The notes: generated by a model not told the origin, from the sequence alone. Positions 12,631-19,418 are shown, counted from the stretch's first letter. The stretch: 64,000 nt of DNA from Alphaproteobacteria bacterium (GCA_013288565.1 JABDBP010000003.1:11671-75670); one strand, 5' to 3'. Numbers and translations are program-made.

Positions 12631-13151
12631 CTAGGTTTCCCCGGTTTCAACGTGTCTTTCATACTTCTCTAGTTTCCTTTCGACCTATCCCACTTAATCC
12701 AAGGAATCCCTAATGCACTGACAAACCTCATTATTTCATTGGTTATCAAGCTGAGCACGGTTTATTCGCTATCCTATAATAGGAACTACCTGCCTAGCGC
12801 GGCTTGGGAATCACTAAAATCCTATCTTTATTTCCTATTATTATTCAATGGATCAGGTCGGAATAATTTTTTAGCATGGAGCTTGCGTGAATATAATAGC
12901 CGTATGTTACAAAATCTTAATTATTAAAGAGAAATATTTTATGATGCTAATACTGTTGTTCCATTGTGTCCGGGCGCCAAGTAACGCATTGATAAATCTA
13001 TAATTTCGTATTGTAATTTTTGTAACAAATATTTAATAAAAATTAACTGGAATTTAACCAGTTATTAGCTATTATGTAATAGTATCTTTATGTATTTAAG
13101 TAATAGCATGTAGACAGATCGGAATTACACATTTTAACAACAGGAGTATTT

Positions 13152-13685
13152 ATGAATTATATGAAAACTAAACAAGTGAAGCTCTCTCTTTTAATCGCTT
13201 CCTTTGTTTTGATTATCGGAGCGGGATTTTCCGCGCAGGCGCTGGTTTTTGGCAGCAACGCTGTGGTTAGCTTCGTAGCCCCAATTACCGTTACCGCCAA
13301 CACACTCCCGAACTTTGGTAATGTAATAACAGACGTTTCGGGTCAAACCCTTACTTTAAGTACCACTGGAGCCATATCCGGCGCCAATTCCTCGGATTAT
13401 GTCAGTGGTGCGTTAGCCGGTAACTATACTATCAAAGGTTCTGCGAGTAGTACGATCGCTATTAGCATTGGCGGCTATGGCGCAGACCATAACGTAGTCC
13501 CTTCGGCAGCTACCTGCGCCTATAACGGGGGTGCCGTATCTTCTCCTTGCAACCTTAGTACCCAGGTCGCTCCCGGCAATGCAGGAAAAACTTTACTGGT
13601 GGGGCTTACGATGACTACCAACAACACTGAAACCGATGGCACTGTCGCTAACCCGACTTTTCAGATAACCGTCGTCTATGACTAA
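13152..13685 (+). CDS. DUF4402-type secreted pilin-like subunit (paralogue 1)
   Basis: The protein has a signal peptide. APITVTANTLPNFGNV, a Cys pair (AATCAYNGGAVSSPC) and the C-terminal FQITVVYD match my memory of DUF4402 proteins (APITIt...l.FG ... vtVaYn). Confidence 0.6.
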   Translation: MNYMKTKQVKLSLLIASFVLIIGAGFSAQALVFGSNAVVSFVAPITVTANTLPNFGNVITDVSGQTLTLSTTGAISGANSSDYVSGALAGNYTIKGSASSTIAISIGGYGADHNVVPSAATCAYNGGAVSSPCNLSTQVAPGNAGKTLLVGLTMTTNNTETDGTVANPTFQITVVYD

Positions 13686-13712
13686 ATATACTATTAAGTA
13701 AGCTATCGAAAA

Positions 13713-13736
13713 GGGACGCAACTGCGTCCCTTTTTA
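13713..13736 (+). terminator. Rho-independent terminator
   Basis: gggacgc-aact-gcgtccc is a perfect 7-bp stem followed by ttttt. It lies 27 nt after the stop of the first pilin gene. Confidence 0.65.
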
Positions 13737-13987
13737 TTAAACTTAGCCTTTAATACTAATCCATTCTTTCCTAATTCCTCCTGCCTTACTTCTTATTTCC
13801 ACCTGATTGTGCAAGATAGTCTAGCGTGATCAAGCAGATAGATTATACCTATAGGAATTTTTACAAATTTTGAAGGTTATTTAATAAAATTATTCCTGGT
13901 AATTTATTGAAATTGCTGGGTTTTTCTTCATATTGTCACGATAAATTTCTTGAATCAGAACCTGCGGAACTGTACTCTAGTCAATGA

Positions 13988-14500
13988 ATGCAGAGCTTAA
14001 AAACCTTTTGTGCGCTCCTTATAGTCGCAATAATATTTGGCTTCGGTCTTGAAGCTAAAGCGGTGACGCTTTCCACCAATGCTGTAGTTAGATTTGTCAG
14101 CCCGCTTGTGATTGCCACTAACCAGTTGCCGAATTTTGGATCAGTCGCCACAGGGGGAGCCGGCCGGGTGCTGACCCTAGATACGAACGGGAACATAACC
14201 AACACCAATGCCGCAGATTACATGAGTGGTGCGGCGGTAGGGAAATATACCGTCACTGGCTCAAGTAATAATACCGTCAATATAAGCGCGCAAAACTATG
14301 TCGCTAACAATAATGTAATTCCATCCGCTGCCACCTGCGCCTATAACGGCGGTACGGCGAACCCTTGCAATCTAGCGGCGCAGGTAGCTCCAGGATCGGG
14401 CAAAACATTGCTGGTTGGAATAACTATCACCACCAGCGGCGTCAGCAATGATGGTGATACCGCAAACCCAATGTTTGATCTCGTCGTAACTTACAATTAA
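13988..14500 (+). CDS. DUF4402-type secreted pilin-like subunit (paralogue 2)
   Basis: The architecture matches 13152-13685: SPLVIATNQLPNFGSV, AATCAYNGGTANPC, and an FDLVVTYN end. It has a signal peptide. Confidence 0.6.
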   Translation: MQSLKTFCALLIVAIIFGFGLEAKAVTLSTNAVVRFVSPLVIATNQLPNFGSVATGGAGRVLTLDTNGNITNTNAADYMSGAAVGKYTVTGSSNNTVNISAQNYVANNNVIPSAATCAYNGGTANPCNLAAQVAPGSGKTLLVGITITTSGVSNDGDTANPMFDLVVTYN

Positions 14501-14630
14501 TCGGCGCTTTAAAGCCCCTTCAAGTAATAATGATCCAGCGCAACATAATATAGCTTAAATCGCTATATAACATCCCCCATTTATAAACCTTTTAGTTGCG
14601 TCCGCATCATCATAGCATTATGCATTTGGA

Positions 14631-15119
14631 ATGTGTTTTGCTAATCATATGCGTTATGCGGTGCTTTTCCTATTTTTATTACTATGCCCTGTGCTTTCAT
14701 GGGCGGCAATCCAGATCTCGGAAATTACCCCGATAAATTTCGGCATGATCCAGATACCTGCTGCCGGCACCGAGACTTTTACCATCAACGGGTCAACAGG
14801 GAGTGCCAGCGGAATCGGGACTTCGCTGAACAATATCCAGACACGGGGCCAATATACCATTACTAACACCGATCATGTGAACGATGTCACGGTTACGATA
14901 GATGTCGAGAATAACGGTGGCGGTGGGGTGTTACAAATGAATAACTTTACCGGTCAGTTCGGCTCCACCACTATCAACAGGTTTCCGGTGTCGTCGCTGC
15001 TGCTACGGAAAGGGCAGAGCCTCACGCTTTATCTGGGGGCAACAATCAGCTATAACCAGAATGTGAGCGATGGCACTACCTATAATCCGGCCTATAACAT
15101 TATGGTCAATATTCCATGA
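14631..15119 (+). CDS. DUF4402-like minor subunit
   Basis: The signal peptide may start at MRYAV (14649). EITPINFGMIQIP is the shared N-terminal motif and the protein ends in YNIMVNIP. Its stop overlaps the next start (ATGA). Confidence 0.5.
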   Translation: MCFANHMRYAVLFLFLLLCPVLSWAAIQISEITPINFGMIQIPAAGTETFTINGSTGSASGIGTSLNNIQTRGQYTITNTDHVNDVTVTIDVENNGGGGVLQMNNFTGQFGSTTINRFPVSSLLLRKGQSLTLYLGATISYNQNVSDGTTYNPAYNIMVNIP

Positions 15120-16003
15120 GCGCGTCATATTTTATCCGGAGTCGATTTATGCAGAAGAAATTTATTTTTCACTTATGTGCGGTTATTCTGCTCGGCACAG
15201 TTCTTATCCTTCCCAGCCCTATCATGGCAGATGAAAATGCCGGCCTTCTGCTTCTGCCGACCAGGATAGTGCTTGGAGAGCGGAATCGCAACGTGGAGCT
15301 ACTGGTTAAAAATAATGGTGGTGCACGCGGGCTCTACCGCATCGAAGTGATCGATATGGACATGCAGGAGAATGGTGCTATCCAGCCTCTGGAAGGTGAT
15401 AAGGAGGAGCCTTTCTCGGCCAAGAAATTCATCCATATATCGCCGCGCCAGATGATTTTGGAGCCAGACCAGACTCAGACACTACGTGTCATTGTCAGGA
15501 AGCCTTCAGGGCTCGAAGATGGCGAATACCGTGCCCATATAAAAGCAACGGTGGTGGAAAATAATGTCGATCCCAGCGGTAGCCCTATTTCGCCCAAGGA
15601 ACCTGAGAAAGGAATGAGTGTCGCCGTTAAAACCCGATTTTCGATAGTCATTCCGGTACTGGTTATGCAGGGGCAATTACATGTTAACGTTGCTTTTGGT
15701 GAAACAAAGCTGCGTGAGGAAAATGGAGCATATTATCTGGATACGGAAATCACCCGGGAAGGCAACCGCTCCGGGTTTGGTGATATAACTGTGACCTACC
15801 AGCCTGCGGCAGGAGACAAACCAACCGTAGTCAAATACCAGCCTGGGCTGGCTGTTTACCGGCCGATGGCCAAACGTAAAATATCGCTGCCGCTCGATGT
15901 GCCGAAGGGTATGAAGATTGCTAATGGTAAATTGATCATGACATATACTACCCAGGAAAAAGACGGCGGTGCCTTGTTGGCGCAAAAAGAAATCGGAATC
16001 TAA
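15116..16003 (+). CDS. PapD-like periplasmic pilus chaperone
   Basis: LLLLPTRIVLGERNRNVELLVKNNG and ISPRQMILEPDQTQTLRVIVRKPSGLEDGEYRAHI fit the two-strand signature of chaperone-usher chaperones. It has a signal peptide. An alternative start is MQKK at 15149. Confidence 0.6.
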   Translation: MSASYFIRSRFMQKKFIFHLCAVILLGTVLILPSPIMADENAGLLLLPTRIVLGERNRNVELLVKNNGGARGLYRIEVIDMDMQENGAIQPLEGDKEEPFSAKKFIHISPRQMILEPDQTQTLRVIVRKPSGLEDGEYRAHIKATVVENNVDPSGSPISPKEPEKGMSVAVKTRFSIVIPVLVMQGQLHVNVAFGETKLREENGAYYLDTEITREGNRSGFGDITVTYQPAAGDKPTVVKYQPGLAVYRPMAKRKISLPLDVPKGMKIANGKLIMTYTTQEKDGGALLAQKEIGI

Positions 16004-16055
16004 TGATGTTGCTGCACTGCCTTTCTGAGTATGTCAGAGGAAAAGGATGAGATAG

Positions 16056-19000
16056 GTGGCTAACGGGAAGTCACTGCTCATTATTTTTGCCGCCTTTCTG
16101 ATCTCAACCGTATCTGTAGAGGCGAGAAGCCAGGAGATTCCGCCGCAAAAGATATTTACCCCGGAAAGTGCGATAAAAGTCGATCTTAAATACCGGGATA
16201 CCAGTTTAGGAACTATAGAAGGTTATTCCAACAACGGTAGTTTCCTGGTGCCGCTCGGGGTGATTGCCAGCAAGCTGAAATTCAATATTACGATAGACGC
16301 GCCAAACGCCACCGCGAGCGGTTGGTTCTTGAGCCCGAGCCGCATCTTCGTCCTGCATGTCAATACCGGCCAGGCCATCATCGAGGGCAAGGAGGTAAAA
16401 ATTCCCCCCAATACTGCTTTCATAAATAAAGGTGAGATCTATGTAGATATAGCCCTGCTGGAAAGTTTTTTCCCGCTGAATTTACGGATCGATACCAACC
16501 AGGGCTATTTACAAATTCTTCCCAATGAACCCTTCCCCGGCCTGGAAGAAACAAGTCCCACGGAAAAAACCCTGCCGGCAAAACCTGTGCCTCTCCAAGC
16601 TGCACCATCCGAGCAACCTTCTACGCAACCAGCGAAGCCTGTGCAGGAGAAAGAGCAGCTAGATGCCTTGAATGAGGATAATCTGGTTATATTCCAGACG
16701 ATGCTTGATAAGATCGCGCTTGAAAATTTCATTGAAGGCTATAGCACCGAAAATCAGAATTACCTGATTTCCTTTAGCGACCTCATGCATTTGCTTGATT
16801 TTCCCATAACCTTTGATCCTTTAACCAATACTGCCAAAGGTTGGTTCGTAAAAGAGGAAAACACTTTCCTGTTGAACGTGAAGGAAGGATTCGCCGAAAT
16901 CAAGGGTCAGAGAACCAGCTTCCCTAAGGCGCAAGTGAGAATTAAAGACGGAATGCTTTTCGTTAACAGCGAGTTACTCGCGCGTTGGTTTCCTTTGGAA
17001 TTCAAGTTCGATCTTGCTTCACTCATCATGCATATCAACCCAACTGAGCCACTGCCGATAATGACTAAAATGGAGCGGGAGAAAAAGCTGGAGAAATTCC
17101 AGAAACAGCAACAGAAACAGGCAGTGGTTTATGACCGGATTGAAGCGCCATACCAGGGAATTAGTTTTCCGTTTCTCGATTTAGATTTGAATACCGGATT
17201 CACCCATAATGCGAATTCTGCCAACAACCTAACCACAAGCCTGACCAATAATAACTTTATCACCAATACCGGTACGACGGTTCCCATTGTGCCGGTTACT
17301 TCAGGCAATACTGCCCCCAATAAAGGCTCTTTTTATGGCTATTCTGTTGTCGGCGGCGGTGATCTCGCCTATTTGAGCGCTAATACTTATGTTGCCGGTA
17401 ATAACGATAGAAATCCCGAGATAGCGCGGTTGGACCTCGGCCGCAAAGATGCGGATGCCCAGCTGCTAGGGCCTATGCATGCCACGGCATTTGATGTCGG
17501 GGACATCAATTCCGGTTCGGTGCCACTGGTTGCCACTACCAGCTTAGGGCGCGGCGTTTCTGTTACCAACTTGCCGGTGAACAGCAACCTTGAATTCGAC
17601 CATGTGAGCCTGGTGGGTGATAGCATTGCCGATTGGGATGTTGAGCTTTACCGGAACGATGCCCTGATAGATTTTCAGCATGTTGGAACCGATGGCAGAT
17701 ATCAGTTCATCAACGTGCCGTTGCTCTATGGAAATAACATCTTCCGCCTAGTGTTCTATGGACCGCAAGGACAAACACGTGAGGAAACTAGGCAATATAA
17801 CATTGGCGATGAGGTTTTGCACCCGGGGGAGTTCCGTTATTTTGCCTCGGTTGATCAAAAATCGCAATCTCTCTTCGGCCTGAATGAGGATTTTGGGGTA
17901 CAGAATACCAAGGACGTGCGTTATGTGAGCGACTTCCAATTTGGCCTAACAAAATGGCTTACCGGAGTGGTTGGAGCTGTTTCGACTCCACTGATTGATG
18001 GCGTGCATAATTATCTGACTTCCGGGCTCCGCGCCGATATGCTCGGATCAATAATTGGGTTTGATGGCGCGGTAACCGATAATAATCAATGGGCAACCAA
18101 AACCACCCTTGTCACCGCCATCAAGGATGTAAGCCTTAAGCTGGAACAGCGATTCTATTCGGACAACTATACCAGTGAGGAAAATGTACTAACAGGAGCG
18201 ACGCCTACCTCGCTATCGCAGATCGACCTCAACACTTCCTTCCCTTCTTTCCTATTCTTGCCCTATATGACTATGGGTTTGAATGTGAAAAACGAAACGT
18301 TCCCAACCGGCGATCAGCAATTCATCACGCACCGATTTACTACCTCGATCAGCGGCATTGGTATCAGCAATAACCTGACTGCCACTTACTCCCCTGGCCT
18401 GGATACTTACATAGGCGATTTCGCGCTGCGTGGCAATCTGTTCGGCTGGAATATCCATAACGTTCTCGAATATGAGTTGCAGCCATTGGAGCAATTGCAG
18501 AAAATCGATTTGGTTCTGCAGCATAATATCACACAAAATGTTTCTGACCGTATCGAGATTCAGAAGGATTTAGTCGAGTCTAGTGCGTCCACCTATCTAA
18601 ATTCCATCATATGGGATCGTCAACTTTATAAGATCAGTCTGGAAACTTCGGTCAGCGAGAGAGGGGATGCGCAAATTCTCGGCCGCCTTACCTTCTCGCT
18701 GGCAAAAGACCCTAGAAGCAATGATGTTCGTACCACAAGCCAAAGTCTGGCTAGCAAGGGTGGAGTGGTCGCCAAGACTTATCTAGATACCAATAATAAC
18801 CAGAAATTGGATGATGGGGATCAATTGATCACGGAACCTCTTGGTTATAACGTCGGCGGCAAAAAATATACTGCGAACAATGATGCGGAAGACCTGATAC
18901 TAGGCGTGGATACCTACCGACCGGTGAATATTGAGATCGATCAAAGCCAGATTCCTGACCCGCGTTGGGTTCCCTATAAAAACGGCTATACAGTGATAAC

Positions 19001-19418
19001 GCATCCGGGCGCCGCACCGGAAGTTGATTTCCTTCTCACCGCTACCAGCGATATTGATGGTATCGTTTATGTCAATGGCGTAGGGGAGGGCGGACAGCCC
19101 TTTGAAGTACCGCTGGAAGGTTCTACGGTGGAACTGGTCAATGATGATGGAAAGGTAATCGCCACCCAGCGTTCGGAATTCGATGGCTTTTTTGATTTTG
19201 AAAAAGTGTTTACCGGGCATTATGTCTTAAGGATCAAGGCCTCTGAGCTTGAAGAAAAGAAACTGGCAGAGCGGGAAACTCAGGAAATTACAGTTACCAA
19301 TAAAAGTGATTCTTACAGCGGCAAAGATATCCATTTGATCCGTGCGGATGTCCCTGCAGGTAATAAGACTGGCGGGGGAAATATAAATTATCCGGTCAAC
19401 CCGGGTATTACTGAATGA
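16056..19418 (+). CDS. Large secreted/outer-membrane protein, putative usher-equivalent of the DUF4402 pilus locus
   Basis: The 1120-aa protein has a signal peptide. Two related ~100-aa N-terminal modules are separated by a Pro/Gln-rich linker. A long beta-rich middle follows. The C-terminus looks like a carboxypeptidase-regulatory domain (GSTVELVNDDGKVIATQRSEFDGFFDFEKVFTGHYVLRI). The start codon is GTG. Confidence 0.45.
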   Translation: MANGKSLLIIFAAFLISTVSVEARSQEIPPQKIFTPESAIKVDLKYRDTSLGTIEGYSNNGSFLVPLGVIASKLKFNITIDAPNATASGWFLSPSRIFVLHVNTGQAIIEGKEVKIPPNTAFINKGEIYVDIALLESFFPLNLRIDTNQGYLQILPNEPFPGLEETSPTEKTLPAKPVPLQAAPSEQPSTQPAKPVQEKEQLDALNEDNLVIFQTMLDKIALENFIEGYSTENQNYLISFSDLMHLLDFPITFDPLTNTAKGWFVKEENTFLLNVKEGFAEIKGQRTSFPKAQVRIKDGMLFVNSELLARWFPLEFKFDLASLIMHINPTEPLPIMTKMEREKKLEKFQKQQQKQAVVYDRIEAPYQGISFPFLDLDLNTGFTHNANSANNLTTSLTNNNFITNTGTTVPIVPVTSGNTAPNKGSFYGYSVVGGGDLAYLSANTYVAGNNDRNPEIARLDLGRKDADAQLLGPMHATAFDVGDINSGSVPLVATTSLGRGVSVTNLPVNSNLEFDHVSLVGDSIADWDVELYRNDALIDFQHVGTDGRYQFINVPLLYGNNIFRLVFYGPQGQTREETRQYNIGDEVLHPGEFRYFASVDQKSQSLFGLNEDFGVQNTKDVRYVSDFQFGLTKWLTGVVGAVSTPLIDGVHNYLTSGLRADMLGSIIGFDGAVTDNNQWATKTTLVTAIKDVSLKLEQRFYSDNYTSEENVLTGATPTSLSQIDLNTSFPSFLFLPYMTMGLNVKNETFPTGDQQFITHRFTTSISGIGISNNLTATYSPGLDTYIGDFALRGNLFGWNIHNVLEYELQPLEQLQKIDLVLQHNITQNVSDRIEIQKDLVESSASTYLNSIIWDRQLYKISLETSVSERGDAQILGRLTFSLAKDPRSNDVRTTSQSLASKGGVVAKTYLDTNNNQKLDDGDQLITEPLGYNVGGKKYTANNDAEDLILGVDTYRPVNIEIDQSQIPDPRWVPYKNGYTVITHPGAAPEVDFLLTATSDIDGIVYVNGVGEGGQPFEVPLEGSTVELVNDDGKVIATQRSEFDGFFDFEKVFTGHYVLRIKASELEEKKLAERETQEITVTNKSDSYSGKDIHLIRADVPAGNKTGGGNINYPVNPGITE

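Follow-up and report, generated by a model that had tools for sequence, protein, structure and literature searches.

A probable deep-branching chaperone-usher locus with DUF4402-type subunits and a remote usher

Five genes at positions 13152-19418 of a DNA stretch from an Alphaproteobacteria bacterium (GCA_013288565.1 JABDBP010000003.1:11671-75670) raise the question of whether small DUF4402-type proteins, a PapD-like chaperone and a very large outer-membrane protein can together constitute a chaperone-usher pathway. The window analysed here is the whole stretch of 64,000 nt; all coordinates are positions in it unless a related locus is named, and the locus and every window feature described below lie on the + strand. 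A first-pass annotation of the window had listed five co-directional genes and had read them as a chaperone-usher-like fibre system with an atypical usher. All five open reading frames (ORFs) are present where they had been placed, intact and co-directional, and the proposed reading is supported by the predicted usher fold, profile homology, synteny and the PapD-like chaperone. The locus probably represents a complete, deep-branching chaperone-usher line, sister to the archaic class, in which DUF4402 subunits are polymerised to form a thin fibre at the cell surface; the polymerisation of its products, their open groove, their surface location and their function we infer from sequence. The system would work like, and is homologous to, the chaperone-usher pathway, and falls outside the archaic and classical clades as these are defined by family models. 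The branch is very diverged and so far unnamed.

The 1120-residue protein and its predicted usher architecture

The largest gene (16056-19418) encodes 1120 amino acids from a GTG start preceded by AAGGA, with a signal peptide at residues 1-23. A word-index search returned 31 relatives that are conserved in their core and variable at their N-termini. An AlphaFold2 model was built on the family alignment with a mean predicted local distance difference test score (pLDDT) of 80.6. In the DSSP strand list of this model, two N-terminal domains and one helix are succeeded by 6 + 18 barrel strands, with a six-strand insert between the two sets, and then by two beta domains. The topology of PapC and FimD is 6 + 18 strands with an insert after strand 6. 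When the model was compared with the PDB by Foldseek, FimD and PapC took every one of ranks 1-18, at E 1.1e-25 to 2.3e-14, with as many as 956 columns aligned and a template modelling (TM) score on the target of 0.41-0.59, and the next match to a fold other than an usher (3e-9) covered the C-terminal domain only. The 24-strand barrel expected of the protein is thus borne out at the level of a predicted model, both by the 6 + 18 strands with their plug and by the top fold matches.

Profile comparisons by hhalign also connect the family to ushers. With nine E. coli K-12 ushers it aligned at 98.5 % probability (E 1.6e-15, 485 columns) from the plug to the second C-terminal domain, collinear with FimD 301-839. 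With 13 archaic ushers, drawn from SCPU-type loci (L138-L150), it aligned at 99.2 % probability (E 3.3e-19) over 776 columns that include the N-terminal domain. Reversed profiles gave 1.1e-3 and 0.25, and cross-family controls gave 0.04 or more. None of the 31 family members matched Pfam Usher (PF00577), PapC_N or PapC_C at E ≤ 1, and the family profile retrieved the C-terminal SdrD-like domain alone from PDB sequences. Because archaic and classical ushers align with each other at E 3.6e-57, as against 3.3e-19 for the present family and the archaic set, the family lies well outside both. Judged by predicted fold and profile alignment, the 1120-residue protein is a true but very remote usher.

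The protein carries two N-terminal modules. Copy 1, the extra one (16170-16523, residues ~39-156), is followed by a low-confidence Pro/Gln-rich linker (residues 165-203) and then by copy 2 (16671-17051, residues ~206-332). Copy 2 has a hidden Markov model match in 84/84 relatives, is collinear with the archaic usher N-terminal domain and is a candidate docking site for chaperone-subunit complexes. The two modules are 35 % identical (E 7e-19) and form two Cu_amine_oxidN1 stretches, which confirms the duplication noted at first pass. This duplication is found in 3/84 relatives, namely the window, its nearest relative L004 and L001. The usher had also been described as larger than PapC-type ushers; the 1120 residues stand, but as a family feature the size does not, because the unusual length comes from a lineage-specific duplication of the N-terminal domain.

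The barrel strands assigned by DSSP on the model fall into two blocks, strands 1-6 (17172-17567, residues ~373-504) and strands 7-24 (17832-18707, residues ~593-884, 18 strands). Between them lies the predicted plug domain of six strands (17601-17804, residues ~516-583), which holds the most conserved motif of the family, GD..PGWDVELYRN...YGPQGQ, and aligns with the FimD plug region from precursor residue 301. C-terminal domain 1 (18723-19046, residues ~890-997) contains a motif, TD..G.A...iD...L.D...P..G...F, that aligns with the conserved FimD C-terminal motif, and an extra D-x-N-x-N-G-type loop (residues 908-922) that classical ushers do not have. C-terminal domain 2 (19047-19343, residues ~998-1096) aligns with the last usher domain and is CarboxypepD_reg/SdrD_B-like; the carboxypeptidase-regulatory-like C-terminus that had been recognised in the window usher occurs in 31/31 relatives as well.

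A peptidoglycan-binding SPOR domain is present at the N-terminus of 10/31 ushers, and SPOR genes lie beside the system in two related loci (L002:3428-4126, L002:10116-10781 and L003:10089-11369). These SPOR links hint at an assembly platform tied to the cell wall. The usher add-ons, the duplicated N-terminal domain here and SPOR in about one third of the relatives, might serve such a tie or might handle two kinds of major subunit.

The chaperone, the subunits and their N-terminal extension

The chaperone gene (15149-16003) encodes 284 amino acids from its likely start. The protein has a signal peptide, and a C-terminal membrane helix was not seen. Its annotation as PapD-like is confirmed on two counts, Pfam and profile matches. 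PapD_N matches the window chaperone at E 8e-4 and 11/12 members of its family, the best at E 3.9e-7. In hhalign comparisons the family profile matches E. coli chaperones at E 3.3e-7 and archaic chaperones at E 8e-10 in local mode; the global alignment to the latter reaches E 3.3e-13 (Prob 98.2, 246 columns) and spans both domains, and the reversed-profile controls gave 0.17-0.33. Single-sequence searches of PDB sequences with the chaperone and with the large protein yielded nothing useful, nor did a search of NCBIfam.

Strand A1 of the chaperone, LLLPTRIVL, carries an invariant Arg that aligns, within PTR, with FimC Arg8; at the position of FimC Lys112 a Ser is aligned in the family. Strand F1 contains an invariant G-E-Y-R-x-H, whose Y127-R128-x-H130 falls within two residues of the archaic Y-R. 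In F1, Y-R marks archaic and alternative chaperones, as with CsuC Arg89, and the archaic carboxylate anchor combines the strand F Arg of domain 1 with a Tyr/Arg pair of domain 2 (PMC4654587). Domain 2 of the present family has nearly invariant Tyr and Arg residues, the alignment of which to the archaic pair is uncertain. Strand G1, RFSIVIPV, has alternating hydrophobic residues and is followed by an invariant Pro, and strand and Pro both align with the archaic G1 strand.

The chaperone profile also matches the WxL chaperone EfmWxLIP1 (PDB 9i25/9i1y) at E 2e-5, and Pfam WxLIP_PGBD matches 2/12 family members. A 2026 preprint reported no connection between the WxL and PapD-like chaperone families at E ≤ 1e-20 (10.64898/2026.10.17.759780). 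In sequence terms, the present family might form a bridge between PapD-like chaperones and those of Gram-positive WxL pili.

Upstream of the chaperone lie three subunit genes, encoding major paralogue 1 (13152-13685, 177 amino acids), major paralogue 2 (13988-14500, 170 amino acids) and a third subunit (14631-15119, 162 amino acids). Subunits 1 and 2 share 50 % identity (E 2e-56). Both contain LPNFG and a Cys pair (TCAYNGG...C), and they end in VVYD and VTYN, in agreement with their annotation as paralogues that share these features. Subunit 3, which had been called a third related subunit, resembles the other two weakly (E 2e-4) and does belong to the same family. Subunit 1 has a predicted signal peptide with cleavage after AQA30; its body, after an extension considered below, is that of a DUF4402/SCPU-like pilin with a Cys pair and a penultimate Tyr.

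Since a protein word-index search with subunit 1 gave one relative, the subunit alignment was built from ORFs of related loci. Of 110 such subunits 97 match DUF4402 (best E 1.7e-35), none matches Pfam SCPU (PF05229) at E ≤ 0.01 and none matches Pfam Fimbrial (PF00419). The penultimate Tyr and the FG motif are conserved at 90 % or above. Against 20 SCPU pilins, hhalign gave the family profile a probability of 96 % and E 3.8e-9 across 151 columns, where the reversed profile scored 0.06, and both families have L-x-F-G and a C-terminal Y....V-T-V-x-Y. In the same test SCPU and classical pilins gave E 4.2e-5, so the link between DUF4402 and SCPU is the stronger one. Between DUF4402 and classical Fimbrial pilins, represented by those of E. 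coli, hhalign detected no similarity and aligned the signal peptide alone. An AlphaFold2 model of subunit 1 (pLDDT 88.5) was searched against the PDB, and about 40 of the top 50 matches were chaperone-usher pilins (CfaB, FimA/I/G, PapA/E/H, Caf1 and CsuA/B). The family profile retrieved from PDB sequences only unrelated carbohydrate-binding modules and intimin, at E ≥ 6e-4.

The segment between signal peptide and domain divides the subunits into two types. In subunit 1 it is an extension of ~13 residues with alternating hydrophobic positions (residues 31-43, LVFGSNAVVSFVA), and paralogue 2 has the same extension. Subunit 3 lacks it, with 11 mature residues before the FG motif as against 24 in paralogue 1. 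Measured across the subunits, the spacing between signal-peptide core and FG motif is bimodal, the long type exceeding the short by ~13-18 residues; in the window, subunits 1 and 2 are of the long type and subunit 3 of the short. The extension of 93 long subunits reads (A-T)x5-[VI]-[VLI]-x-P, in which Ala and Thr/Ser strictly alternate ahead of V/I and then Pro, and leads into the first domain strand. Such a segment looks, by its sequence, as a donor strand should.

Extension-less subunits make up 29/65 of the chaperone-adjacent subunits and 2/71 of the others (Fisher p 3e-9), and never more than one occurs per locus. Donor-strand complementation and exchange are established in archaic Csu pili (PMC4654587, PMC9452303). 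By the logic of donor-strand exchange described there, subunit 3 is probably the distal tip or initiator: being without an extension, it could accept a donor strand and not give one, which would place it at the distal end.

Several side observations concern subunit types. All three ushers with a duplicated N-terminal domain (16170-17051 in the window, L004 and L001) stand in loci with three subunit genes, two of them long, three related cases that carry no statistical weight. Sphingomonad-type loci (L052, L053, L057, L060, L061, L063, L075, L076 and L079-L083) have no chaperone-adjacent extension-less subunit; upstream of the long subunit they have another distal subunit class, in which C-x-L-C stands close to the N-terminus and FS/FD replaces the FG motif. 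Double-length DUF4402 proteins of 314-346 amino acids, apparently with two pilin-like domains, are encoded at L006:12116-13060 (- strand), L018:572-1612 and L040:3521-4534, and may serve as tip subunits with two domains, in the manner of adhesins from other chaperone-usher systems.

Synteny, proposed assembly and rival explanations

Subunit, chaperone and usher genes occur together in 61/62 independent loci, counted among those with more than 2.5 kb upstream and scored as kept when a chaperone and at least one DUF4402 subunit were present. The order is mostly subunits, chaperone, usher. Four distant relatives have the same gene set in unrelated flanking contexts. Co-occurrence of the three components, which the first-pass annotation had named as a check on its reading, is therefore the rule.

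A genome-wide scan found at least 598 usher relatives in at least seven phyla. The matches listed include Alpha-, Beta- and Gammaproteobacteria, Bdellovibrionota, Myxococcota, Acidobacteriota, Fibrobacterota, Nitrospinota and Desulfobulbus, and among them are the cultivable carriers Massilia, Marinobacter, Halomonas/Vreelandella, Pseudomonas tumuqii and Thalassomonas. The usher family comprises 4,106 cluster representatives at E ≤ 1e-30. Within the order of the window organism the family is patchy, being present in 7/31 genomes, which suggests repeated loss; usher homologues with stop codons were seen in three relatives of the same order (G002, G014 and G020). An HMW1C-like glycosyltransferase gene adjoins the Thalassomonas locus (L002:10875-12755).

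The following course of assembly is proposed. All five proteins would be exported by Sec, as their predicted signal peptides indicate. In the periplasm the chaperone would capture the unfolded subunit; from homology, its G1 strand RFSIVIPV would fill the groove left by the missing seventh strand, and the chaperone would anchor the subunit C-terminus, ...V-x-Y-x. The chaperone-subunit complexes would dock on the N-terminal domain of the usher, which by prediction and homology would be a plug-closed 24-strand outer-membrane barrel whose two C-terminal domains hold the growing end. The extension-less subunit of gene 3, able to accept a donor strand and unable to give one, would for that reason enter first and become the distal tip. 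The two major paralogues would add next, each Ala/Thr-type extension being inserted into the groove of the preceding subunit by donor-strand exchange, and the fibre would be pushed out through the barrel. It likely plays a role in adhesion or cell-cell contact.

The same machinery could instead make an amorphous or sheet-like coat of short polymers, comparable to the F1 capsule or the Myxococcus spore-coat protein U layer. The Ala/Thr-type extension is similar to that of subunits that form capsules, each subunit has a single domain and the window encodes no two-domain adhesin. Known chaperone-usher systems, archaic ones included, also produce capsule- or coat-like material (PMC13734109). The sequence does not separate a discrete fibre from a coat. 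The combination of one extension-less subunit with major subunits is, however, the arrangement of polar fibres that have a defined tip, and we regard a coat as unlikely, if the most serious of the competing explanations.

We consider it very improbable that the 1120-residue protein serves as an outer-membrane channel or transporter of a general kind and that the small ones are unrelated, non-polymerising proteins of the periplasm or surface, their neighbourhood being coincidental or due to some other shared function. Pfam Usher, PapC_N and PapC_C are indeed unmatched, and porins, TonB-dependent receptors and LptD do appear in the fold search at E ~1e-4 to 1e-3. The E values of the usher matches are nevertheless lower than those of the next class by over 16 orders of magnitude, and the profile alignment stays collinear with ushers over the N-terminal domain, plug, barrel and both C-terminal domains. 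The synteny described above also argues against a chance neighbourhood, and chaperone and subunits are each independently homologous to chaperone-usher parts. Equally hard to credit is a decaying, non-functional remnant in a small, reduced genome, for despite the genome size, the patchiness in the order and the internal stops in some relatives, the locus has five intact frames with signal peptides, ribosome-binding sites and family-invariant residues, and the nearest relative, L004, keeps the same five genes.

Several points weigh against the reading of the locus as a chaperone-usher line that builds a fibre. All window subunits score below the Pfam DUF4402 (PF14352) gathering threshold of 25.2 bits, with 18.9 bits (E 2.5e-3) for subunit 1, 23.0 bits (E 1.4e-4) for subunit 3 and no match for subunit 2. 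The pilin fold matches of subunit 1 are individually not significant (best E 0.017, TM ≤ 0.47), and DSSP does not assign a strand to its extension in the monomer model. The count of 24 barrel strands comes from the DSSP list of a predicted model, and the alignment of the carboxylate-anchoring residues of the chaperone is uncertain by one or two positions. When the families were compared by hhalign with single FimC, FimD and FimA sequences, the matches were not significant (E 0.03-0.08), and significance was reached only with profiles from many E. coli and archaic proteins. Fibre and polymer are also predicted from sequence, and the organism is known only from an incomplete assembly.

A wider proposal, for which we would put the chances at a little under even, is that the relatives form a separate chaperone-usher clade, the deepest-branching one, outside all clades defined by the Usher Pfam model and spread over at least seven diderm phyla. 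Its members would build DUF4402 fibres by donor-strand exchange, started by a single-domain subunit without a donor strand, and its usher would have acquired periplasmic add-ons.

The layout of the locus bears on how its genes are expressed. The first-pass annotation had subunit 3 translationally coupled to the chaperone, but the ATGA overlap exists only with the longest chaperone ORF (15116-16003, 295 amino acids), and no ribosome-binding site comparable to that of the internal ATG at 15149, which has GGAG 7 nt upstream, was found ahead of 15116. Homologues and the database gene call (284 amino acids) likewise begin at the Met of 15149. On these grounds the two genes are probably separated by 29 nt and do not overlap, in which case the proposed coupling would fall away.

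Sequence and RNA folding identify an intrinsic terminator 3' of subunit 1 (13709-13738), composed of an A-tract, the stem GGGACGC/GCGTCCC with a 4-nt loop, and a T-run. Its predicted fold has -22.8 kcal/mol (z = -5.17), and 0/200 shuffles were equally good; the same scan gave no clear terminator 3' of subunit 2 or of the usher. As the terminator lies directly downstream, subunit 1 is probably its own transcription unit. Upstream of each major paralogue is a similar AT-rich stretch of ~30 nt (13025-13060 and 13878-13912), ATTTAATAAAA..TTA..CTGG.AATTTA. These like stretches, together with the terminator after paralogue 1, suggest that duplication of the major-subunit gene took its control region with it and that the copies could come under separate regulation. 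With a terminator after paralogue 1 and an upstream region for each, expression of the two paralogues may be strong or under separate control. The genome assembly of the window (1.34 Mb, 70 % complete) contains only these three subunit genes, and at that completeness it has no Pfam Usher match at E ≤ 1 and no SCPU gene.

Significance and comparison with known systems

If the proposed reading is true, it provides a concrete function for Pfam DUF4402, for a family of ~900-residue 'hypothetical' outer-membrane proteins (~4,100 cluster representatives, E ≤ 1e-30) and for its chaperones. The chaperone-usher pathway would then extend beyond the current family models and reach Acidobacteriota, Fibrobacterota, Nitrospinota, Myxococcota, Bdellovibrionota and small-genome Pseudomonadota, and adhesin surveys that use Usher or SCPU models miss all such loci. 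The deep branch would be a useful outgroup for the evolution of ushers, of the plug and of the docking domains. The prediction should be easy to test in several carriers that are both harmless and cultivable, namely Massilia, Marinobacter, Halomonas/Vreelandella and Thalassomonas.

No paper was found in the literature searched on DUF4402/PF14352 or on the present system, and none that links an usher with a carboxypeptidase regulatory-like domain; the nearest literature concerns recognisable archaic systems or other pili. Type V pili of Bacteroidota were rejected, since the subunits are without a lipobox and the locus encodes a chaperone and an usher. A sortase pilus was likewise rejected, the proteins being periplasmic and the weak FctA/SpaA matches being generic beta-sandwich noise. 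The CT pilus of Microcystis (PMC12397347) and the archaic fac system (PMC13734109) are different systems.

The WxL pilus chaperones of Bacillota (DUF916/DUF3324; ElrE and EfmWxLIP1) are matched by the chaperone profile, and ElrE is reported to prime pilins by donor-strand complementation (bioRxiv 10.64898/2026.10.17.759780). They are membrane-anchored and act in monoderm, usher-less systems, whereas the chaperone described here is predicted to be soluble and periplasmic and is encoded beside an usher.

With the classical pili of E. coli (type 1, Fim, and P, Pap) the system shares a predicted usher fold and domain order, consisting of the N-terminal domain, a 24-strand barrel with the plug after strand 6, and two C-terminal domains. 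The A1 Arg of the chaperone has its classical counterpart in FimC Arg8, and FimA ...FKVQYQ is the aligned counterpart of the subunit C-terminus, in which hydrophobic residues alternate and the last residue but one is Tyr. In contrast, DUF4402 has no profile similarity to Fimbrial (PF00419), the second anchor residue, Lys112, is without an aligned counterpart, and the match to classical chaperones is weaker than that to archaic ones (3.3e-7 vs 8e-10).

The archaic (sigma) pili, represented by Csu of Acinetobacter baumannii and CupE of Pseudomonas aeruginosa, consist of the same three-part set of subunits, two-domain chaperone and usher, and they provide the best profile matches for all three parts of the window family (3.3e-19 for the usher, 3.3e-13 for the chaperone and 3.8e-9 for the subunit). 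Both subunit families carry L-x-F-G and the C-terminal Y....V-T-V-x-Y, and the chaperones of both have the F1-strand Arg region and the invariant Pro after G1. The differences from the archaic class are several. Family models place none of the present proteins in it (SCPU 0/110 subunits, Pfam Usher 0/31 ushers), and the genome of the window is without an SCPU gene. The archaic tip, CsuE, is a two-domain adhesin, while the tip candidate here is single-domain and extension-less. The usher here ends in a CarboxypepD_reg/SdrD_B-like domain, and its N-terminal domain is Cu_amine_oxidN1-like, sometimes duplicated and sometimes with SPOR ahead of it. By these sequence comparisons, the class nearest to the present system is the archaic (sigma) one and not that of PapC.

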